DNA of 43,746 nucleotides, from sequence record PQ850621.1. The stretch is one strand, 5' to 3'. Position 1 is the first letter of the stretch. Every line of letters starts with the position of its first letter. This document shows positions 1-32,740 of the stretch, piece by piece. A program made the translations under genes and the position numbers. The notes under the pieces were generated by a model, which saw nothing but the letters and a program-made list of their open reading frames with translations, did no database searches and was not told where the DNA came from. The stretch comes from Escherichia phage NicoleGrasset_Bas72.

Positions 1-549
1 GTGCGCTCTGATGGTCAGACGCATATGCAAGGGGATTCTATGAAGCTGAAACTTAAGCAGCCATCGCCAGAGGTGGTACAAGCTGCACATGAAGAAGCTG
101 TTAGCGCAAACCGTCGCCGTAAACGACCGCGCGGTAAACAGAGCCTTTATCAATCATCCCGTAATTCCGCCGCGTTGTGGGACCCGGGCTATTGCGATGC
201 ACTAATCGAGTTCTTCGACCGCACGTCGTGGGAGCTTGTGCCTACGTCTAAGGGTGACGAACGCCCGCTGATTCAGGATAAACCACCGTCACTGGCCCGC
301 TTCGCCTTACACATCGGAGTCACTATCCCGATTATTAAGCTTTGGCTGCGTGAGATTCCCGCATTTGCAGAAGCCTATGAAACGGCGCAGGCGCTGGAAG
401 AGGCGTACTTCACCGAGACAGGGGCCGCAGGTATCTCTGCTACGTTTGCTGCTGCGAAACTGGGGTTGAATAAAACAGTTGTCGCCGAAGAAGTACGCGA
501 CGAGCCAATCAGCGAAGTAACAATTAAGGTGGTGTCCGGTGAACGTTAA
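1..549 (+). CDS. putative terminase small subunit; ORF is open to the window edge, likely ATG start at 25 or 40
   Basis: ORF directly upstream of and overlapping the large terminase; basic stretch RRRKRPRGK; call is by position, no diagnostic motif recognised. Confidence 0.45.
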   Translation: MRSDGQTHMQGDSMKLKLKQPSPEVVQAAHEEAVSANRRRKRPRGKQSLYQSSRNSAALWDPGYCDALIEFFDRTSWELVPTSKGDERPLIQDKPPSLARFALHIGVTIPIIKLWLREIPAFAEAYETAQALEEAYFTETGAAGISATFAAAKLGLNKTVVAEEVRDEPISEVTIKVVSGER

Positions 550-1810
550 TATCACGGCAACGGAGCCGCAAGGCGCGTTTCTCGGTATGCATTGCAAGTT
601 TCCGGCATTCGTAGCTGGCTTCGGTACGGGTAAATCCGAAGTTATGTGCAACTCTGCACTACTCGACAGCATGGAAGGTGGTAGCGATTCTATCATCGCC
701 ATGTATGAGCCGACTTATGACCTGGTGCGCCTCATCCTTGCACCGCGTATGGAAGAAAAGCTCACCGACTGGGGTATCCGGTACAAATACAACAAGTCTG
801 ACAACATAATCTATACGTCTTCCGGACAATTTGGGGATTTTGTTCTGCGTACACTTGATAATCCAGCACGAATCGTTGGCTACGAATCGTTTCGTGCGAA
901 AATCGACGAGTTGGACACACTTAACATGGAGCACGCCGAGCACGCGTGGAACAAAGTCATCGCCCGTAACCGCCAGTTGCCGCGGACATATAAACCTATT
1001 ACACCGAAACCTGCTAATACCGTTTCCGTGTTCACTACCCCGGAAGGATTCCGTTTCGTACATGACCGCTGGGTAGTCAAAAAGAATCCAGGCTACGAGA
1101 TGATTCAGGCGTCCACCCTGTCTAACCCGTTCCTGCCAGAAGATTATGTGCAGTCGTTACGCGACACATACCCAGGTCAGTTGATTGACGCCTACATCAA
1201 CGGCGAGTTCGTCAACCTGACGGCGGGGACTGTCTATTACGCCTATGACCGCAGGAAAAACAGCAGCCGCGAAACAATAAAACCAGGCGAGACTCTGTAT
1301 ATCGGGCAGGACTTTAACGTAGGCCACATGGCTAGTACAGTTTACGTGCAACGTGGCAAAGTCTGGCATGCAGTCGCCGAGTTGGTGGATATGTTCGATA
1401 CGCCCGATGTGGTGAGAGCCGTAACAGAGCGCTGGAAAAGTAAGGGCCACTATATCGTTATGTACCCCGACGCAAGCGGTAAAAACCGTAAAAGTAACAA
1501 CGCCAGCACATCTGATATTGCCCAGTTACAGCAGGCCGGCTTCGAAGTGCGCGCTAAATCGACAAACCCACCGGTTAAAGACCGCGTAGCGGCGATGAAT
1601 AAGGCGCTTGAATCTGGTATGGTCATGATTAATGAACAGGCTTGCCCTGTTACCGCACGATGCCTGGAGCAACAGGCTTACGACAAGAACGGCGAACCGG
1701 ATAAATCAGGCGGTGTGGACCACCAGAATGATGGAACCACATACCCTATCGCGTATGAAATGCCGATTCGCAAACCAGTTATTAACGTCCCGGTGACTTT
1801 CGCACTTTAA
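539..1810 (+). CDS. terL: terminase large subunit
   Basis: 423 aa; GTG start with AAGGTGG SD 8 nt upstream; Walker A-like GFGTGKS near N-terminus; followed by portal-sized ORF. Confidence 0.8.
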   Translation: MNVNITATEPQGAFLGMHCKFPAFVAGFGTGKSEVMCNSALLDSMEGGSDSIIAMYEPTYDLVRLILAPRMEEKLTDWGIRYKYNKSDNIIYTSSGQFGDFVLRTLDNPARIVGYESFRAKIDELDTLNMEHAEHAWNKVIARNRQLPRTYKPITPKPANTVSVFTTPEGFRFVHDRWVVKKNPGYEMIQASTLSNPFLPEDYVQSLRDTYPGQLIDAYINGEFVNLTAGTVYYAYDRRKNSSRETIKPGETLYIGQDFNVGHMASTVYVQRGKVWHAVAELVDMFDTPDVVRAVTERWKSKGHYIVMYPDASGKNRKSNNASTSDIAQLQQAGFEVRAKSTNPPVKDRVAAMNKALESGMVMINEQACPVTARCLEQQAYDKNGEPDKSGGVDHQNDGTTYPIAYEMPIRKPVINVPVTFAL

Positions 1811-10745: not shown

Positions 10746-11158
10746 TGGGCTACTTTGAGGACTTAACAAAAGCGTTCGATGTTCCGCTGGTAGCCTTCGG
10801 AACCGCCAACGGCATCAAGGTTGCGCTTGAAAACATCGACGCGCCGACGTCAACCGATACGCCGTATCTGGCGAGTTACATGCTACTGGCAGATACCGAG
10901 CAGGCGGATTTGTTCTTCACTGAGCAACGCTCTGGTATTTATCAGGTAGACATTAACTACGCATCGGTGAAAGGTAGCGCGCCAATCAATAAAATGGCAG
11001 ACTTACTTAACACGGCGTTTAAAGCAGGTAAGTCATTTTCGCGTAACGACATCTGCGCCGAGGTTCAATCGGTTAGCCTGGGGCCGCTGATTGTAGAAAA
11101 CGGATGGGCCAAACGACCATTGTCAATTAACTTTATTGCATTCACCAAGAGGCTGTGA
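10745..11158 (+). CDS. structural protein (tail region)
   Basis: 1-nt overlap with upstream stop; 137 aa. Confidence 0.5.
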   Translation: MGYFEDLTKAFDVPLVAFGTANGIKVALENIDAPTSTDTPYLASYMLLADTEQADLFFTEQRSGIYQVDINYASVKGSAPINKMADLLNTAFKAGKSFSRNDICAEVQSVSLGPLIVENGWAKRPLSINFIAFTKRL

Positions 11159-12327
11159 ATATGGCTACAACTCCTTTTAAGGGCGCGAATACCGCGCAAT
11201 TCTATGTGGCGGAAACTACCCCTGGCGTAACACCGACTAACCCGGTATGGTCGCCGTTGCGTAACACGGGCGGCGTTCCCGCTGTAACCCGCGATGCACT
11301 GACTTCCAACGAACTGGACGGCAGCCGTGAAACTACATCCATCCGAACCGGTAACAAGCAGGTTAGCGGGGAGTATGCCATCGAACTTAGCTCTCGTAGC
11401 CAGGATGATTTCCTTGCGGGAGCGATGACTTCTACGTGGCAAGCTGGGGTAGAGATTACTGGCGCCGAAATTACGGTCGCCCCAGCAGGTAAAACATTCA
11501 CCCGCGCTGCCGGTAGCTTCATTACTGACGGTGTAGAAGTTGGCGACCTTATTGCGTTCACCGACTTAACCGGCGACAACGCAAAACCGTTTATCGTGAC
11601 CGCGGTTTCCGCTCTGGTAGTTACGGGCGCAGGTATTCAGCACACGCTGACAGCAGAGACAGTAACCACTGACGCAAAAACTGGCGACAAGCTGGAAACC
11701 GGTAACGCGTGTAAGACGTTCTCCATCCTGACGTGGTTCAAGGGCCAGTGTGGTAACCCGGACGCGTACATGCTGACCAAAGGTGTGGAAATCTCTGGCT
11801 TTACCGTAGAGCAGGCGGTTAACGCCATGGTCACCGGCAGCTTCCCGTTCATCGGCCTGAGTCAGGAGATTCTTACCGCGCCGCCGTCTGGCTCTGATTT
11901 CTCTCAGGTTACGTTCACCGATGAGCCGTTCTCGTCGGTAGATGTGTCGGTGTTCGATGGCTCCACGCCGTTGCGTTGCGATACTCTCACCATCACCAAC
12001 GACAACGGAGCTTCCGCGCAGTTCGAACTCGGTAACAGTAGCGTGGCGTTCGTCGAACGTGGACGCGCAGCTAACACATTCTCTATCTCTGGCAAGCTGT
12101 ACGACATGGCGATGATTCAGAAGTTTATCAACGAGCAGCAGGTAGAGATTAACTCTATTCTGGCAGGGGTAAACGGGGCTATGTCTTTCAGTTTGAAACG
12201 CGCAGAGCTTACGGCGGTTACACCTGAGATTGGTGGGCCTGAGTCAATCACTCAGTCCATTGAAGGCCAGGCTACCGGCAATCAGTACCAGTCGTCTATC
12301 GTAATTCAACGTATCACCTACGCATAA
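11155..12327 (+). CDS. putative major tail protein
   Basis: 390 aa ORF upstream of chaperone/tape-measure genes; followed by strong terminator at 12329-12356. Confidence 0.45.
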   Translation: MNMATTPFKGANTAQFYVAETTPGVTPTNPVWSPLRNTGGVPAVTRDALTSNELDGSRETTSIRTGNKQVSGEYAIELSSRSQDDFLAGAMTSTWQAGVEITGAEITVAPAGKTFTRAAGSFITDGVEVGDLIAFTDLTGDNAKPFIVTAVSALVVTGAGIQHTLTAETVTTDAKTGDKLETGNACKTFSILTWFKGQCGNPDAYMLTKGVEISGFTVEQAVNAMVTGSFPFIGLSQEILTAPPSGSDFSQVTFTDEPFSSVDVSVFDGSTPLRCDTLTITNDNGASAQFELGNSSVAFVERGRAANTFSISGKLYDMAMIQKFINEQQVEINSILAGVNGAMSFSLKRAELTAVTPEIGGPESITQSIEGQATGNQYQSSIVIQRITYA

Positions 12328-12328
12328 A

Positions 12329-12356
12329 ACTAAGGCCCCTTTCGGGGCCTTTTTCT
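12329..12356. terminator. bidirectional rho-independent terminator
   Basis: AGGCCCC tttc GGGGCCT then TTTTT; convergent genes on both sides. Confidence 0.75.
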
Positions 12357-12586
12357 CACTCATCAATATTACTTCGATACTCCCGTAACTTCTCCAGACT
12401 TTCAATTGCTTCTGCTAAGTCGGTTCCGGTGTCCTTATGCCCGCGAAGACCCATGCACAATAACTTCTTCAATGCGTGCTGTAGTGCGGGGTCACGGATG
12501 TCGAAGGCACGGAGAACATCGTAAACGTCTACGGTCATAGTGCTGCCGTGAGTGTTTGTCATTGTTCGGTTGTATTTTGAAGTCAT
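12356..12586 (-). CDS. hypothetical protein (76 aa)
   Basis: Last gene of minus-strand cassette; start overlaps stop of 12583-13713. Confidence 0.45.
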   Translation of the reverse strand: MTSKYNRTMTNTHGSTMTVDVYDVLRAFDIRDPALQHALKKLLCMGLRGHKDTGTDLAEAIESLEKLREYRSNIDE

Positions 12587-13713
12587 CCCAGCATCTCCGG
12601 TGAAATAGTTAAACGTGCGACCTCGCCATATTCGGCGCTATAAGTAATTACATTTGCACTACGGCCTGACATCCACCCGCCGCGGGAGGCATAGGCGTCT
12701 TTAGCCGCTAAGGTGCGGTGTTGCTCAACAATCATGTTACGGCTTTCTACAATCTTCTGGTGGTGCAGGTGGCCTACGTGGGCGTAGCTATAGACACTCT
12801 CACCGAACGCTTTGCGGAATTTGGCAATCATAACCGGTTCGATAGCATCGAATCGCGCCTTATGCCCGTGGTGAAAGAACAACGTCGTTTTTCCGTGTTG
12901 CACCATCTTGTAAACATCCGGCGACGTATCGACAATCACTCGGCTGTCGTTCGAATATAAAACTGTGAACATTTCAGCCAGCCATACAGAGCCTACAGGG
13001 TCATGGTTCCCCTGTACGATAAGCAAGCGAACATTTTTATGTTTAACCAGTGCCATATCTACAACACGGCGTACCATACGAATCATGTAGCGGACGAGTT
13101 TCTGGTAGCGAGTGTCTGCGTCCAACACGTGACGCGACTCAGGTGTAACGGCATCCAGACTATCGAAGTGCGCGAAATCACCCAGCAGGTTAATAACTCC
13201 TGTTCCTGCATCCGGTGCTTTCTGAAACGCCGCGTCGAACCAACGAGAGAACAGGTCTTCCGCAATCTTTATATCCCAGTCGTCGCCGCTCTCGTCGGCC
13301 CAGGCAAGCATACCGAGATGGAAATCAGATACCGTGTAAAGATTGAGTAGCTTGTCGTCGCGTTTGGCTCGAGTCGCTTTAGCCGGCGCAACTGGCGTAA
13401 TCTCTGACTTCATGCCTTCAATCACGGCTTTCATCAACTCGACCTGACGTTCAGCGTCGGTGTCTGTCTTAACCCATTGCAACTTAGTATTGCCGAACTC
13501 GTCTACCAGAGACGACGTCCCTTTAATCTTGTAGCCGTCTGGGACAAGGTGGCTAACGTCACGCCCGTGGCCTACACCTTTCTTAGCCAGCTTCGCTTTA
13601 CGGATACGAATAACTCGGTCTGAGATGCCGTATTTACGGGCGATGTCTACATTCTTCATCCCGGCGTTCAATTCTTCCTGTAACTGTTCGTCGGTTATTT
13701 TCTTCTGGGCCAT
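12583..13713 (-). CDS. HTH domain fused to calcineurin-like metallophosphoesterase
   Basis: Metallophosphoesterase motifs visible in order: SDFHLG (D-x-H), GDFAHFD (GD), GNHD, HHGH, GHLHH; N-terminal HTH-like segment VDIARKYGISDRVIRIRKAKL. Confidence 0.7.
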   Translation of the reverse strand: MAQKKITDEQLQEELNAGMKNVDIARKYGISDRVIRIRKAKLAKKGVGHGRDVSHLVPDGYKIKGTSSLVDEFGNTKLQWVKTDTDAERQVELMKAVIEGMKSEITPVAPAKATRAKRDDKLLNLYTVSDFHLGMLAWADESGDDWDIKIAEDLFSRWFDAAFQKAPDAGTGVINLLGDFAHFDSLDAVTPESRHVLDADTRYQKLVRYMIRMVRRVVDMALVKHKNVRLLIVQGNHDPVGSVWLAEMFTVLYSNDSRVIVDTSPDVYKMVQHGKTTLFFHHGHKARFDAIEPVMIAKFRKAFGESVYSYAHVGHLHHQKIVESRNMIVEQHRTLAAKDAYASRGGWMSGRSANVITYSAEYGEVARLTISPEMLG

Positions 13714-13778: not shown

Positions 13779-14105
13779 CTATTTACTTTCTGCGCCTATC
13801 GCCCACCCTGTCATTACCATTTGCAGACGGGTGGCTGTCAGTAGGCTATAGAAAGCATCTCCGTTTTTCTCTACCGAACGTATCACTGTGTAGGTTACGG
13901 CCTGCGGGGGTAGGCCCGATTTACCAACCTCCACGGCGGCCTCACACTCGCGAACTGTAGAGTCCTTGAACGCCTTTACAATAGTAGGGTCGGCTTTATC
14001 AAGCACACCAGAAGTCATAAGAACAGATTCACTAAATACCTGTTCGCACGGGGCTCCAAAAGTAGCAAAAGACATAAACCCCAGAGCTAATACTAATTTA
14101 CGCAT
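13779..14105 (-). CDS. small secreted protein (signal peptide)
   Basis: N-terminus MRKLVLALGFMSFATFGA is a signal-peptide-like n/h/c region; first gene downstream of promoter 14134-14162. Confidence 0.55.
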   Translation of the reverse strand: MRKLVLALGFMSFATFGAPCEQVFSESVLMTSGVLDKADPTIVKAFKDSTVRECEAAVEVGKSGLPPQAVTYTVIRSVEKNGDAFYSLLTATRLQMVMTGWAIGAESK

Positions 14106-14133
14106 AATTATACCCTCAGTAAGTTACTGGTGA

Positions 14134-14162
14134 ATAGTACCCTATTATATTGGGGCGCGCAA
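14134..14162 (-). promoter_or_regulatory. promoter, TTGCGC-N17-TACTAT family
   Basis: On minus strand: TTGCGC, spacer gccccaatataataggg, TACTAT; drives cassette 13779-14105 onward. Confidence 0.55.
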
Positions 14163-14269
14163 GTAGTGTGTTAGAATAAGTTTGCGCCTAGTGTCGCACA
14201 CGAAAAGCGGGTGGTTCCCGCCTGGCGCATTAACCATAACCAGTAACCTCTTAACCAAAGGACTAAAGA

Positions 14270-14686
14270 ATGAAACTTTCTGATTTCTATTTTGCCGACC
14301 GCCACGCCGCCGGTACTAAAATGCCTATCCTTCTGCCCAGTGGTAAAGATTCCGGTGAATGGTTGCAGGTCATCGGCCCCGATTGTGACGCTGGTGTTCG
14401 TGCGGGCCGTGCCTACACAACGGCAATTCGACGCCTTACGGAAGAACTTGCGCCATTAGATAAAGAGTGCGAGGCGCTGAATAACTGGGCGCGCTATAAT
14501 GATGAGAAGGGCTGGCGGGTGATGGACCTGAACAAGCAGCTTGCCGTGGAAATCGTCACCGGTTGGTCATTCGACGAACCATTCAGCAAAGAGGCGCTTG
14601 CTAACCTGTTCGACCAGTACAGTGGGTTGGCAGAGGCCGTAGTTAAGCATCACACCGATAGCCGTGAGAAACTCTCGGAAAAGTAA
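14270..14686 (+). CDS. tail assembly chaperone (G-like)
   Basis: 138 aa ORF immediately upstream of tape measure gene; downstream -1 frame ORF overlaps by 16 nt. Confidence 0.55.
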   Translation: MKLSDFYFADRHAAGTKMPILLPSGKDSGEWLQVIGPDCDAGVRAGRAYTTAIRRLTEELAPLDKECEALNNWARYNDEKGWRVMDLNKQLAVEIVTGWSFDEPFSKEALANLFDQYSGLAEAVVKHHTDSREKLSEK

Positions 14687-15048
14687 AAGCGCTGTATGAA
14701 TTTGCGCAATGGTGCTTTGTCGACCGCCACAAACGTAAGCAATTCGACGACATCGCGGCGGGCCACCAGGCGGCTTTGATTGCAATGGGCGTGATTAAAG
14801 AACCGCAGATGAAAGAAGCGACGGGGCCGGAATGCCCCGTTTCTCTTATCGACGTGTTCGAGAAATACCGTGCCATTAAATTCCTACAGCGCGAAACAGA
14901 TGATACTATCGTTATAATCCCGCGCGATGCGCTCAAATGGCAAGATTTGGTAGCGTTTCGTGATGTCGCCGGTTACGGCATAAGTTTGTTCGAAGCCGAG
15001 GTTATCATGGGCTTAGACGGAATATTTGAGGGCAGAGAAGATGGCTGA
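14668..15048 (+). CDS. -1 frame extension of tail chaperone (GT-like frameshift product), putative
   Basis: Frame -1 relative to 14270-14686 opens at 14668 with no in-frame ATG before 14785; ends overlapping the tape measure ATG; GAAAAG run at 14678-14683 lies in the overlap. Confidence 0.4.
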   Translation, partial: ETLGKVKALYEFAQWCFVDRHKRKQFDDIAAGHQAALIAMGVIKEPQMKEATGPECPVSLIDVFEKYRAIKFLQRETDDTIVIIPRDALKWQDLVAFRDVAGYGISLFEAEVIMGLDGIFEGREDG

Positions 15049-17353
15049 TACGGCTTCCCTAATTGCCAGAGTAAAAACAGAAGGCGCTGATGTAGCCGCT
15101 AAACAGCTTGACGCTATGGCGGCATCCGCAGACCGTGCGGACACATCCGTAAACAAACTAACGCCGGATGTTAATAAAGTAAACTCCGCTACGTCTAAAG
15201 CGGCTTCTGACGGTTTCGCTAAATTCCGTAACGCCGCCGGGCAGGTAGGCTTCCAGGTGCAGGACATGGTCGTCCAGTTGCAGTCCGGCACGTCTGCATT
15301 CGTAGCAATCGGGCAACAAGGCTCTCAGCTTGCGGGTGCTTTCGGCCCTGGTGGCGCGGTGCTTGGGGCCGTAATTGCTCTTGCGTCAGCAATCGGTGGT
15401 GTCCTGTATAAATCGTTAACCGAAGCAGAAGGCAGTTCAAAAGACCTCGAAGCCGCACAGAAACAGCTAAAAGATACTTTCCAGCAAACGGCGTCCGGCT
15501 CTCTCGAACTGACAGACGGCCTTATCCAGCTTACCCAAATCAGCAGAGAAGCGGCGGAGACTCAGCTTGCGCTGGCTAAGGCTAACGCGGACCTTATCGC
15601 ACAGCAAACAGCTAAAGCTGTTCGTGAGGACGCAGAATCATGGGAGACATGGAAGGCATCCACAGCATCAGCTATCAGCCAGTACGATGCATTGGCCTCT
15701 AAAGGTGCGGATGTAGGCGACACGTTAGAAAAACTCGGTGGCACTTACGAGGGTAACATCGTAGGCGTCAACATGCTGGCGCAGAATATCGCAGAGCTTA
15801 GCAGTAAGTTTGGGGTTAACCGTGACCAGGCGCTGGAGATGATAGCGGCGCAGAGTGCGTTTAACAAAGAGCCAACCGCCGAGAATGCCCGTCGCATCGC
15901 CGATGTGTTTACCGACTGGCTCGGTAATACAAAACAGTTGAACCCGGAACTTATCCGCCTGACCGACAATGCCAACAAGAACGCCACGGCACTGGAGAAC
16001 GCGGAGAAGTCCGCAAACGCGGCGGCGGAGGCCCAAAAGAATCTTGGTCGTAACGTCAACTCAACAACGCAGAGATTCCAGGAACAGAACGAAGCTATCG
16101 TCAAAAACCAGCAAATCGCTATCTTAAGTGACCGCGAGCGTATCCGTGCGCAAGCTGAACTGGATAAGCAGGCGTTCGCTAAACGTGAAGCTGTCACCAA
16201 AGAACAGATCGCCGCGTATAATGCTGCGCGTGACACGGAAGCACAACAAGACATCGCTCGCATCGACGCTACCGAAAAAGCGAAGGCCGACCGCGAGGCC
16301 AAATCGAACGAGAAACGGCTGGCGGCACAAGCCAAACGCGAAGAAACGGCGGCTGAACGACAGAAAAAAGCGGCGGAAGATTTCCTGGCTACTGTCGACC
16401 GCACAACCGGAGATGAGATTTCGCGCATTACCGCTGCGGAAGAACAGAAACTGGCGAAACTGGAGGAGTTCAACCGCGCCGGAACGATAAGCCAGCAGCA
16501 GTATGAAAACGCCAAAACTCAAATTATGCTCACAGCCGAGCAGGCCAGACAGGAAGAACTGGATAAGAAAAGAAAAGAGCAGCAGGAAAAGCAGCAGAAA
16601 GGCGAGGACTTCATGGCACAGATTATGGGTCAGAACGCTACTGAGCTTGAGCTTCTCGACATCCAGGAACAGCAGAAACTGGAGGTAGCGGATAAGTACC
16701 GTGAGCAGGGGCTTATTAGTGAGAAGCAGTACCAGGCGGCGCTTAACGCCATCAATGAGCAGTATGCTACGAAGCGTGCCGACGCAACGGCAACCGCCTT
16801 CGGTAACATGGCTTCAAACATCGGTTCGGCTTTGGGCGAGGCTTCTGGCGCGTATAAGGCATTCGCTATCGTACAGGCCACTATCGCCACGTACACCGCG
16901 GCTATCGAGGCGTACAAGTCCACAGCGGCTATCCCTGTAGTTGGTCCGTTCCTGGCTCCTGTAGCTGCCGCCGCTGCCGTTGGGGCGGGTATGGCGCAGA
17001 TTTCCGCTATCAGGTCCGCACGTGAACAGGGCGGACAGTTATCAGCCGGGCAGGCTTCCACCATCGCTGAACGTGGTAAACCAGAAGTTATCATGCCCGC
17101 TGGTGCGTCACGTGTACGCACCGCACAGCAGATGAAAGAAATTATGGGGCAAAACGGGTCTTCTTCCGGCCCATCTAATGTTACCATTGTAAATAATACA
17201 TCGAGTCAGATTGGCAACGTATCCACCGAGCAGGATGATGAAGGCCGTCTGCGTATCATCATAGAAGAGCAAGTTGCTGCATCTTTGCAGAACAGCAACA
17301 GTAAGATTAGCAAGGCCCGCAAGGCCACAAGAAACGCGCCGGGGTTTAAATAA
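15041..17353 (+). CDS. tail tape measure protein
   Basis: About 770 aa, highly A/E/K/Q-rich helical protein with low-complexity repeats; position after chaperone pair. Confidence 0.75.
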   Translation: MADTASLIARVKTEGADVAAKQLDAMAASADRADTSVNKLTPDVNKVNSATSKAASDGFAKFRNAAGQVGFQVQDMVVQLQSGTSAFVAIGQQGSQLAGAFGPGGAVLGAVIALASAIGGVLYKSLTEAEGSSKDLEAAQKQLKDTFQQTASGSLELTDGLIQLTQISREAAETQLALAKANADLIAQQTAKAVREDAESWETWKASTASAISQYDALASKGADVGDTLEKLGGTYEGNIVGVNMLAQNIAELSSKFGVNRDQALEMIAAQSAFNKEPTAENARRIADVFTDWLGNTKQLNPELIRLTDNANKNATALENAEKSANAAAEAQKNLGRNVNSTTQRFQEQNEAIVKNQQIAILSDRERIRAQAELDKQAFAKREAVTKEQIAAYNAARDTEAQQDIARIDATEKAKADREAKSNEKRLAAQAKREETAAERQKKAAEDFLATVDRTTGDEISRITAAEEQKLAKLEEFNRAGTISQQQYENAKTQIMLTAEQARQEELDKKRKEQQEKQQKGEDFMAQIMGQNATELELLDIQEQQKLEVADKYREQGLISEKQYQAALNAINEQYATKRADATATAFGNMASNIGSALGEASGAYKAFAIVQATIATYTAAIEAYKSTAAIPVVGPFLAPVAAAAAVGAGMAQISAIRSAREQGGQLSAGQASTIAERGKPEVIMPAGASRVRTAQQMKEIMGQNGSSSGPSNVTIVNNTSSQIGNVSTEQDDEGRLRIIIEEQVAASLQNSNSKISKARKATRNAPGFK

Positions 17354-18753
17354 TGAGCGACTTATATTTCCCACGTAGCCTTAAGCCGGTGGTATCGAAA
17401 GGCTACTCAATGACCAGACGCAACAACGTCTGGAGTGTAGATTTAGCCGGTGGCGGAGTGCGTCAAGGCCGTGACACGTATTATGATGTGTTCCCAATAA
17501 GCGTAACCCTGATTACATCTGCACTAGGGCGACAGGCGTTCCTGTCGTTCCTTGAGAAAGTGGACGGCGGCGCGTCAAGTTTCTGGATGGCGCATGACTT
17601 CGGCATGGGTATTGAAGATTATCAGGTAACCATCACGTCCACCATCGCGGAGTCCACCGAAGACGGCATTAACTGGACGATTACTTTCACGGCAACCGCC
17701 GAGAAATCCCCGTTCCAGGACCAAGAGAACCAGTGCCTGATTAACAATCTTCCAGATTTGTACGGTTGTTACGGGGATTGTCTGGGTAGTTTCCTGAAAA
17801 TATACGCGAACTACGAGACTACGTTCCCGCGCATCTGGAGCAATGAAGGGCCTGCCGGGCATCCACCGATTAACCTTCTGGCGTCGACTCTTGATAGCCG
17901 CATTGTTTACGACGGGCCACAGGTTTACTACATCAACCGAAATGGCAATCTTGTGCAGTCCGCCACTAATGAATGGCCTCTTACGTTTATCGATGGAGTT
18001 GCTGTTGGGCGTGTACCACCGGAAAAGGCGGCTACCAATGTGGTAGAACATTCTAACAACTTACTATCTACATCATTTTCACGTACCAGAACAACAACCA
18101 CGGCGAGTTCTTTGGCGTTATTCCAAGAAACTTATGCTGCTAAATTAACCGCAACGTCGGTATCAGGTAACCATTATATAAACCAGATGGTGGCTCCCGC
18201 ACCGGGAACAAGGTATTCTCTTAGCGCTATCATGAAAGCAGATGAGTACCAGTCGGCAGCGGTAGTCATCGGCAACCGAGCCGCTTTAGATAATTTCCAG
18301 TATGCCTATGTTGACTTAGCCTCCGGCTATTTGATATCAGGCGACACCTCAAGGTCGTTCGTAAGCAATCTTGGTGGTGGGTGGTATCACGTTTCAATGT
18401 CAGCGGACACTAACGACTCCGGCGGATTGATTTATTCGCAGATAAACATGTTGTCGCCGTCTAACTCCCTCACCTTCACAGGGGATGATGTCAGTGGGTT
18501 CAATGTGGCTCTAATTCAATCGGAGGCATCGCCATTTGCCACATCGCCAATAGTAACCGATGCGTCACCGGTAACCAGACACACGGCATCGGCAAAAGTA
18601 GCAATGAACGGCGCAACAAGCATCGACATTACCTATTCAGACGGCTCCGTGATAAACGTTCAGGCTGTTGACGGTTACGCCTCCATACCCCAAGCGGATT
18701 CGGCGTGGGGTAGTAAGTACATCACTCGTATTGATTTTAATGTGGACGGTTAA
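17353..18753 (+). CDS. minor tail protein
   Basis: 466 aa ORF; ATG overlaps tape measure stop (TAATG). Confidence 0.55.
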   Translation: MSDLYFPRSLKPVVSKGYSMTRRNNVWSVDLAGGGVRQGRDTYYDVFPISVTLITSALGRQAFLSFLEKVDGGASSFWMAHDFGMGIEDYQVTITSTIAESTEDGINWTITFTATAEKSPFQDQENQCLINNLPDLYGCYGDCLGSFLKIYANYETTFPRIWSNEGPAGHPPINLLASTLDSRIVYDGPQVYYINRNGNLVQSATNEWPLTFIDGVAVGRVPPEKAATNVVEHSNNLLSTSFSRTRTTTTASSLALFQETYAAKLTATSVSGNHYINQMVAPAPGTRYSLSAIMKADEYQSAAVVIGNRAALDNFQYAYVDLASGYLISGDTSRSFVSNLGGGWYHVSMSADTNDSGGLIYSQINMLSPSNSLTFTGDDVSGFNVALIQSEASPFATSPIVTDASPVTRHTASAKVAMNGATSIDITYSDGSVINVQAVDGYASIPQADSAWGSKYITRIDFNVDG

Positions 18754-31463: not shown

Positions 31464-32740
31464 TCCAAATCCTCCTCTGTTACCTGATTCCACTCAGGAC
31501 GTTTGTCGTCTGCCGTTGCGACACATGGTGCGCCTGGCTTACGGGTAATGAAGTCTTTCAGTTCTTCTTCCGGTATGACTTTAACAGCTTCGGTAGGTGA
31601 CATGAGCACTTCTTTAGTCAGCTTGTCGCCGTAGAGTTCTGTTACTTTCTCCGCGTCTTTCCATGCACGATTACCCGGGCGGCCTTCAACCAACTTGTAA
31701 CCAGGAACTTTCTTACCTGAATGCAACGCGGCCGCCATAGCTTTCTCAACCTTGTCGATGTGCTGGCGCAACAGCGGCAACTTCTCATACTCAGCTACGA
31801 GTTGCTCCGGCGTCAGTTCCAGCACAAAGTCGTCTTCCAGTTCTTCCGCCAGTACAGAATTAACCGTCTTTGTACGCGCAGCGCATTGTTCAGAGAACCG
31901 GCACCACTGACAACCATCTACCGATGGCTTGAAGTCCGACGCTTTCAGGTTCTTCTTGCCACGGAAATACGCATCAAGCGCTAACAGCGCGCGTTTCTGT
32001 GCGAACTTAGCGAACAGTTCCAGTCCTTCAACCGAGATGTCCCACTCTGTCGCGCCCCCAGCGTAAGGCTGGAAGATGACCAGACGAACGGTTGTTATGT
32101 TATAACGTCTCTTGAGTCGACGATAAACACCGAGAGCGTAAAGCATAAGCTGCTTGTTTTCTTTCGCTTCGACGCGATGCCGTCCTGTTTTAAGGTCGCC
32201 GATAATGAGCATCGCGGAGTTACTTTCACCTGTAAAGCCTTCTATAACCGCCACTAAGTCGGCTGTCCCGAATGTCTCTAAATCATCCTCCTTACCTTCT
32301 TCACTCTCAGCAGGTACTTTGTAGCCCGGATGCAATACCTCAGTAAGATTGACACGCATTTCCAGCTTGGCGTAAGTCGCTACATCGATAATCGCTTTGC
32401 AGTAGTCGGTGTACTTGCGAACCTGTTCAATCATGTCAGCCGTAATCAGTACCGCGCCTTTCATAGGGCTGATTAACGCCTTAATCTGGCCTTTTCCTTC
32501 GTCCAGTACATAAGCGCCGACTTCACGTTCTAATGGCAACGCAGTGCCTTTGATGTACTGGTTAAGGTGTATCTCGGCTATGGTGTGCATTGCCGTGCCT
32601 AATATCGCAGCTTTACCGGACGTGTCAGGAATATCCTTTTCACAGGCCAGTGATGCGGCGCAGGTTAACCACTTTTTAGCACCTGACGGTGACAGTAAGG
32701 CGTGTACGTCGTTATTGCCGCCGCGTTCTTTTAGAATCAT
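31460..32740 (-). CDS. DUF2800-like PD-(D/E)xK (Cas4-like) nuclease
   Basis: N-terminal HALLSPSGAKKWLTCAAS signature; C-terminal Cys cluster VDGCQWCRFSEQCAAR consistent with Fe-S Cas4-like nucleases; ends with VTEEDLE. Confidence 0.6.
   Translation of the reverse strand: MILKERGGNNDVHALLSPSGAKKWLTCAASLACEKDIPDTSGKAAILGTAMHTIAEIHLNQYIKGTALPLEREVGAYVLDEGKGQIKALISPMKGAVLITADMIEQVRKYTDYCKAIIDVATYAKLEMRVNLTEVLHPGYKVPAESEEGKEDDLETFGTADLVAVIEGFTGESNSAMLIIGDLKTGRHRVEAKENKQLMLYALGVYRRLKRRYNITTVRLVIFQPYAGGATEWDISVEGLELFAKFAQKRALLALDAYFRGKKNLKASDFKPSVDGCQWCRFSEQCAARTKTVNSVLAEELEDDFVLELTPEQLVAEYEKLPLLRQHIDKVEKAMAAALHSGKKVPGYKLVEGRPGNRAWKDAEKVTELYGDKLTKEVLMSPTEAVKVIPEEELKDFITRKPGAPCVATADDKRPEWNQVTEEDLE

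Follow-up and report, generated by a model that had tools for sequence, protein, structure and literature searches.

The window (the whole stretch of 43,746 nucleotides analysed, record PQ850621.1) comes from Escherichia phage NicoleGrasset_Bas72, a Kagunavirus about 99.5% identical to the BASEL phages Bas70 and Bas75. Kagunavirus and Jerseyvirus phages are small virulent siphoviruses. The gene under study occupies positions 13779 to 14105 on the minus strand, with its ATG start codon at 14105 and a Shine-Dalgarno sequence, GAGGG (14113–14117, minus strand), located 7 nt 5′ of the ATG. The 2-kb region around it is 99.5% identical to that of the Escherichia phages AnnaReinhart_Bas75 and MarieHeimVoegtlin_Bas70, and matches 451 phage records, nearly all from the genera Kagunavirus or Jerseyvirus of the subfamily Guernseyvirinae. 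Its counterpart in Bas75, Bas75_0024, is annotated as a "hypothetical protein". Full-length homologues were found by tblastn in 98 phage records, the dN/dS ratio of the window gene against three close homologues was 0.035–0.05, revealing strong purifying selection, and the encoded 108-aa protein matched phrog_14165 with E = 7e-56, residues 1–108 aligning to profile positions 1–109 of 109. Judged from sequence, these three results identify the ORF as a genuine gene, more than a chance reading frame. Inside Kagunavirus, the protein is very conserved, and no mark of an arms race is apparent.

The gene heads a leftward unit of three genes, as the initial annotation had proposed in describing it as the first gene of an accessory cassette. 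This unit is set between the rightward tail-tube gene (11155–12327) and the rightward chaperone and tape-measure genes (from 14270). The second cassette gene (12583–13713, minus strand) encodes a helix-turn-helix and calcineurin-like metallophosphoesterase protein (phrog_704, "DNA repair exonuclease"), whose N-terminal helix-turn-helix-like segment gives weak GerE/LuxR and FixJ matches over residues 9–45. The third (12356–12586, minus strand) encodes a protein of 76 aa whose matches are confined to the C-terminal third of several longer PHROG families, so that it looks like a stand-alone domain. A GC-rich palindromic hairpin followed by a T-run (12332–12351), just past the tail-tube gene, would end the leftward cassette as a terminator; a rho-independent terminator is also annotated 3′ of the tail-tube gene in SETP3. 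Among relatives, the downstream cassette genes differ and include those for an HNH endonuclease, a polynucleotide kinase-phosphatase, Ant and a methylase; the first position does not vary in the way that these genes do. In the SE2 cassette, an unannotated 760-bp gap between the methylase and metallophosphoesterase genes contains a full-length, 96-bit match to the ColE1-type antisense RNAI, RF00106 (positions 1739–1841 of locus L009, minus strand; about 32123–32225 of NC_016763.1), which may have entered the record as an artefact of assembly or from a cloning vector, or else be a true insert of plasmid origin.

A dedicated promoter had also been proposed for the gene, and this holds for the existence of a conserved sigma-70-like site 5′ of it, not for the promoter that the scan itself reported. 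The sole leftward match of the scan, TTCACC-16-TATAAT (14134–14107, minus strand), places its −10 hexamer between the Shine-Dalgarno sequence and the ATG and so cannot produce the mRNA of the gene. At the level of consensus, a better candidate is TTGCGC-17-TACTAT (14134–14162, minus strand), with the −35 hexamer at 14162–14157 and the −10 hexamer at 14139–14134. Its hexamers and spacing are kept, despite sequence drift, in 10 loci that include both types of gene found at this position (see below), and in SETP3 a BPROM-predicted promoter is annotated about 35–63 nt 5′ of the gene that this phage has there, roughly matching the position of the candidate.

The intergenic region contains further elements. 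On the opposite strand, 76 nt upstream of the gene, positions 14181–14245 (plus strand) match the full model of RF02996, "int-alpA RNA", with 35.8 bits, which is exactly the gathering score (E = 3e-6 in a 201-nt search; absent from the larger "gathering" run). The corresponding elements of K1ind2 (31.8 bits) and Esher4 (28.2 bits) fall below the threshold. Across 10 loci of both types, the outer stem and both inner hairpins are retained with compensatory changes, and all non-Watson–Crick cells become G–U on the plus strand. A possible rightward promoter, TTGGGG (14150–14155) followed by TGn-TAGAAT (14169–14177), lies just 5′ of the element, which could thus be a small RNA or form the start of the transcript carrying the chaperone and tape-measure genes. 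The 30-aa ORF Bas75_0025 (14145–14237, minus strand) overlaps both the conserved promoter-like sites and this element, has no family match and is probably not a gene.

The product had been described as a small exported protein with an N-terminal signal peptide and no lipobox, and our analysis bears out both features. Heuristics predict a cleavable Sec signal peptide, MRKLVLALGFMSFATFG, encoded by codons 1–17 (14055–14105, minus strand), in which the n-region MRK, with a charge of +2, precedes a 15-residue uncharged hydrophobic run, and small residues occupy positions −3 and −1 (T-F-G|A-P-C), so that the n, h and c regions and the −3/−1 rule point to a cut after residue 17, before APC. This n/h/c layout is kept in all 42 family representatives (42/42) while the signal sequence itself drifts, as expected of a functional export signal. 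No second membrane helix was found in the window protein, its best later 19-residue Kyte–Doolittle mean, 0.88, being too weak. The PROSITE-type lipobox pattern is absent from the window protein; in 10 distant family representatives a lipobox, A[FVI][LI]G-C, is present at Cys17 with a serine at +2. This lipobox branch, in which the motif lies upstream of the two conserved cysteines, includes two loci on metagenomic phage contigs (L006, 6001–6366; L007, 6001–6372) and the representatives P0028 and P0036–P0044. Some phages thus probably make this domain with a lipid anchor, and others as a free periplasmic protein.

The predicted mature part comprises 91 aa, with a mass of 9.7 kDa and a pI of 5.0. 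Four residues, Cys20, Cys54, Trp101 and Gly104, do not vary even among members with only about 25% identity. An AlphaFold2 model, of moderate confidence only (pLDDT 74), is an all-helical bundle, which a disulfide between Cys20 and Cys54 probably stabilizes.

As phrog_14165 has no assigned function, membership in it says nothing on mechanism. No match was found for the window protein in Pfam, NCBIfam or PADLOC, and Pfam gave none for it or for 13 relatives even at E ≤ 10. The label "DUF3718", carried by the homologue in phage S4lw, was rejected, since 0/14 members, including the S4lw protein, match that model at E ≤ 10; the label "glycoprotein precursor" in a GenBank record is likewise unsupported. 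Profile searches returned only 11 proteins among 1.8 billion representative proteins and only 39 clusters among 5.8 billion proteins, with a Pfam domain on record for 0/39, and BFVD returned uncharacterised phage proteins only. Neither a known fold or domain matching the mature part nor any sequence or fold similarity to a known exclusion protein was found. True family members all measure 108–123 aa, and the seven loci with surroundings examined (7/7) are all Guernseyvirinae-like phage contigs. From these searches, the family is small and confined to Guernseyvirinae phages.

The position of the gene is kept far beyond its sequence. Members with 24–40% identity, on metagenomic phage contigs (L005–L007), occupy the same slot, by which we mean the head of the leftward unit, in divergent orientation to the chaperone gene. 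In phiEap-2, TS6, Tsm2, Smarc3 and AH01, the slot is filled by a secreted two-cysteine protein of 108–120 aa, which in the first four of these phages is the only leftward gene there. These proteins are tied to the family by profile and transitive similarity; their pairwise E-values come from a tiny database and overstate significance.

In SE2, K1ind2 and SETP3, the slot contains a different gene, encoding a 59–63-aa protein of the Imm_superinfect family (PF14373). The slot proteins of SE2 and K1ind2 match this family with E-values of 2e-15 and 2e-13, above the Pfam cut-off, and the slot Imm matches the imm genes of T4-like phages directly by tblastn. The exclusion function of the Imm family is experimentally established. 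The Guernseyvirinae Imm was found in about 351 phage records, versus 98 for the 108-aa protein. For Escherichia phages (73 + 29 = 102) and for records named "Kagunavirus" (8 + 3 = 11), the counts of the two genes sum exactly to the number of records that have the neighbouring chaperone gene, and for Salmonella phages they account for 327 (263 + 64) of 357; the Salmonella phages left over probably include TS6-like phages with the more distant secreted protein. Imm was not found in the whole genomes of K1H and S4lw, nor in the window, and the secreted protein was not found in the whole genomes of SE2 and K1ind2. Both types occur among the BASEL isolates, Bas70, Bas71, Bas73, Bas75 and Bas76 being of the secreted type and Bas74 of the Imm type.

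Among about 500 genomes, the slot was occupied by just two gene families and, where the counts are complete, was never empty. It thus appears that the slot always has an occupant, which is one or the other of two unrelated and apparently mutually exclusive envelope proteins. This alternation looks like the non-orthologous displacement of one function.

The slot type is also associated with the genes on the other side of the intergenic region. Divergent from the slot gene lie the tail assembly chaperone gene G with its T extension (14270–15048, plus strand) and the tape-measure gene, whose N-terminal part of about 500 residues (15041–16540, plus strand) is co-inherited with the slot gene. A gene-by-gene comparison revealed that, even between genera, phages with the same slot type resemble each other in chaperone G and in the first 500 or so residues of the tape measure. 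Over tape-measure alignment columns 1–480, the window phage shares 66–92% identity with the Jerseyvirus S4lw, which is also of the secreted type, versus 13–31% with the Kagunavirus K1ind2, which is of the Imm type. The tape-measure C-terminus follows the genus, not the slot type: the window phage and K1ind2 are 82–100% identical in the C-terminal segment of about 280 residues, and 95–99% identical in the flanking genes. The T extension follows the slot type within the genus only; its identity is 99% with K1H, versus 47% with K1ind2 and 46% with S4lw. At ≥80% identity, the secreted-type tape-measure segment is present in 95 records, near the 98 that carry the gene. This segment has a hydrophobic stretch at residues 104–122 of the tape measure in the secreted type, which the Imm type lacks. 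A published comparison (PMC5582158) names the chaperone gene and the immunity gene in its list of differences between the K1 phage P, on the one hand, and phages G and L, on the other, and does not discuss them further.

The slot and the chaperone gene are separated by an intergenic region of 164 nt whose similarity tracks the genus, with 83% and 82% identity across types within a genus and 58–60% between genera, and a tract of about 230 nt, covering this region and the start of the chaperone gene, matches between the types and is long enough for crossover. Three of four chimeric queries retrieved no recombinant among about 450–490 records. The fourth retrieved SETP3, which combines Imm with secreted-type chaperones and a secreted-type tape-measure N-terminus, 89–100% identical to those of S4lw. 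As SETP3 is a viable natural recombinant, a strict coupling of slot, chaperone and tape measure was rejected; the coupling between slot and tape measure is strong but not obligatory, and may reflect selection, adjacency or both. The 11 loci obtained from IMG/VR are not enough to test the coupling independently.

Mosaicism across genera was also observed elsewhere in the window. The large terminase (539–1810, plus strand) is 89% identical to that of the Jerseyviruses SE2 and S4lw and 54% identical to that of the Kagunaviruses K1H and K1ind2, and K1H gave no tblastn match to the major capsid protein of the window. The protein encoded just past the tape measure (17353–18753, plus strand) has 466 aa both here and in K1ind2, with 69% identity over the full length; only some 35% of it can be aligned to K1H, SE2 and S4lw, in which the gene annotated at this position encodes 147–166 aa, and this partial alignment indicates that the 466-aa protein carries an extra domain, which has no Pfam match.

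With regard to function, the initial annotation had suggested receptor masking or superinfection exclusion. The exclusion half is supported, indirectly, by the alternation of the slot with a homologue of T4 Imm, and the receptor-masking half appears less likely, as BASEL Kagunaviruses require the O16 O-antigen, which is recognised by the tailspike (PMC11990801), and a 9.7-kDa periplasmic protein cannot cover the O-antigen. Our preferred reading, which we advance tentatively and rate at somewhat under an even chance, is that the protein acts early, in the periplasm, to block genome entry, taking over the role of Imm. It draws on the slot shared with Imm, the conservation of position far beyond sequence, the envelope location, the linkage to the injection machinery and the precedents discussed below.

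According to this model, host RNA polymerase would transcribe the gene as the first of the leftward cassette, with an early timing that we infer, and the Sec pathway would export the 108-aa protein to the periplasm of the infected cell, where its signal peptide would be removed. There, it would stand in for the inner-membrane Imm encoded at the same position by most relatives. Its target would probably be a part of the incoming tail that becomes accessible in the periplasm, and the most plausible such part is the N-terminal module of the tape measure once ejected. Superinfection exclusion would thus act at genome delivery, a second phage of the same kind being able to adsorb but not to open a DNA conduit through the envelope.

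Several observations temper the exclusion reading. The protein resembles no known exclusion protein found in our searches, its structure model is of moderate confidence only, and its strong conservation within Kagunavirus bears no arms-race signature. The slot heads a variable accessory cassette, so the two genes may share it as a convenient place to insert and not because their functions are alike. In addition, SETP3 uncouples the slot from the tape-measure type, so adjacency may explain much of the coupling. Both the high variability of the rest of the cassette and the uncoupling in SETP3 would suit a periplasmic host-takeover or counter-defence factor unrelated to exclusion, directed for instance against an envelope-located host defence, nuclease or protease; its presence in the imm slot would then be due solely to the favourable place, at the head of a hypervariable cassette and next to a strong promoter. 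We consider such a factor rather unlikely, given that only two gene families fill the slot across some 500 genomes, that the slot is never empty where counts are complete, that several phages have no leftward gene there besides the one for the secreted protein and that PADLOC gave no match.

The lipobox with a serine at +2 in the 10 distant representatives, which would direct them to the outer membrane as lipoproteins, and the predicted export of the window protein would both be compatible with receptor blocking from the periplasmic side, in which the protein would bind and inactivate an outer-membrane component needed after O-antigen binding, as Llp and Cor do with FhuA. The window protein itself has no lipobox, however, no match to the lipoprotein exclusion families was found in PHROGs or Pfam, and Imm, the alternative occupant of the slot, does not act on a receptor but on the tape measure, at the inner membrane. 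Moreover, no protein receptor is known for these phages, which use the O16 O-antigen via the tailspike (PMC11990801), and we regard this explanation as improbable. Equally improbable is a periplasmic regulator that controls lysis or protects the envelope, for example an antiholin comparable to T4 RI or, in the manner of T4 Spackle, a cell-wall hydrolase inhibitor that guards against premature lysis or lysis from without: the protein has the general build of Spackle and RI (about 100 aa, exported, helical) and two invariant cysteines suggestive of a disulfide, as in Spackle, but the location and the missing target weaken this proposal.

Genome entry, where the preferred reading places the block, is a stage at which both the passage of siphovirus DNA across the periplasm and its blocking by infected cells are poorly understood and, to our knowledge, only a few exclusion proteins have known targets. 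In the literature searched, we found no description of the function of this gene, of its alternation with imm or of its link to the tape-measure type, and the gene has been deposited many times as "hypothetical". The locus constitutes a natural experiment, in which two unrelated envelope proteins alternate beside two alternative tape-measure N-terminal modules, with SETP3 as the one natural recombinant. If the reading is true, the protein would belong to a known kind of exclusion system, as a variant without homology to the others. A wider proposal, which we hold to be possible yet doubtful, is that phrog_14165, together with the distant secreted or lipid-anchored two-cysteine proteins of other Guernseyvirinae, would form a new periplasmic exclusion class recognising the ejected N-terminal module of the tape measure; Imm and the secreted protein would then be interchangeable "locks", usually inherited with the matching tape-measure "key" as one recombination module across genera. 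An entry block dependent on the tape-measure type would represent a new periplasmic exclusion mechanism, would identify a part of the tape measure exposed during siphovirus injection, and would predict which members of Kagunavirus and Jerseyvirus interfere with each other in phage cocktails.

Four known systems offer points of comparison. The lipoproteins Llp of T5 and Cor of T1 and phi80 block the receptor FhuA. Like the window protein, they are small exported siphovirus proteins, and some distant members of the family share a lipobox with them; their lipoprotein architecture (as cited in PMC3594210) is not that of the window protein, which lacks a lipobox, and no homology was found between them.

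HK97 gp15 is an exclusion moron located between the chaperone and tape-measure genes, which excludes at the DNA-entry step by a block that depends on the tail features of the incoming phage (PMC3594210). Both genes belong to a self-contained transcription unit in the tail operon, near the chaperone and tape-measure genes, delimited here by the promoter-like site and the terminator hairpin. Unlike gp15, a YebO-like single-pass inner-membrane protein encoded by a prophage, the window protein is predicted to be secreted without a membrane anchor, is unrelated in sequence and is encoded on the opposite strand of a virulent phage.

T4 Spackle (gp61.3) is a 75-aa periplasmic helical bundle with one disulfide, which inhibits the tail lysozyme (PMC7677548) and acts alongside Imm in exclusion. 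The window protein resembles it in being small, encoded by a virulent phage and provided with a cleavable export signal (here according to heuristics). Its AlphaFold2 model is all-helical and its two cysteines are invariant; there is no sequence or fold match between the two. The target of Spackle, the tail lysozyme gp5, has no detectable counterpart among the tail proteins of this phage: in a Pfam search that covered the tape measure and five further tail proteins, neither a lysozyme nor a transglycosylase domain was detected in them, the endolysin alone matching PF00959, which makes the specific mechanism of Spackle unlikely here.

The last comparison is with T4 Imm itself. Imm proteins are multi-pass inner-membrane proteins of 59–83 aa, whereas the window protein would be soluble, exported and helical, with a predicted cleaved signal, and it shows no Pfam match to PF14373, no sequence similarity to T4 Imm and no second hydrophobic helix. 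Imm and the window protein are alike in that both come from virulent phages, are envelope proteins (in the case of the window protein, by prediction) and occupy the same slot in sister phages. T4 Imm has been reported to bind the tape measure protein, thereby blocking genome translocation, and a similar proposal has been noted for HK97 gp15 (bioRxiv 10.64898/2026.03.06.709160); here, the tape-measure gene lies beside the slot.
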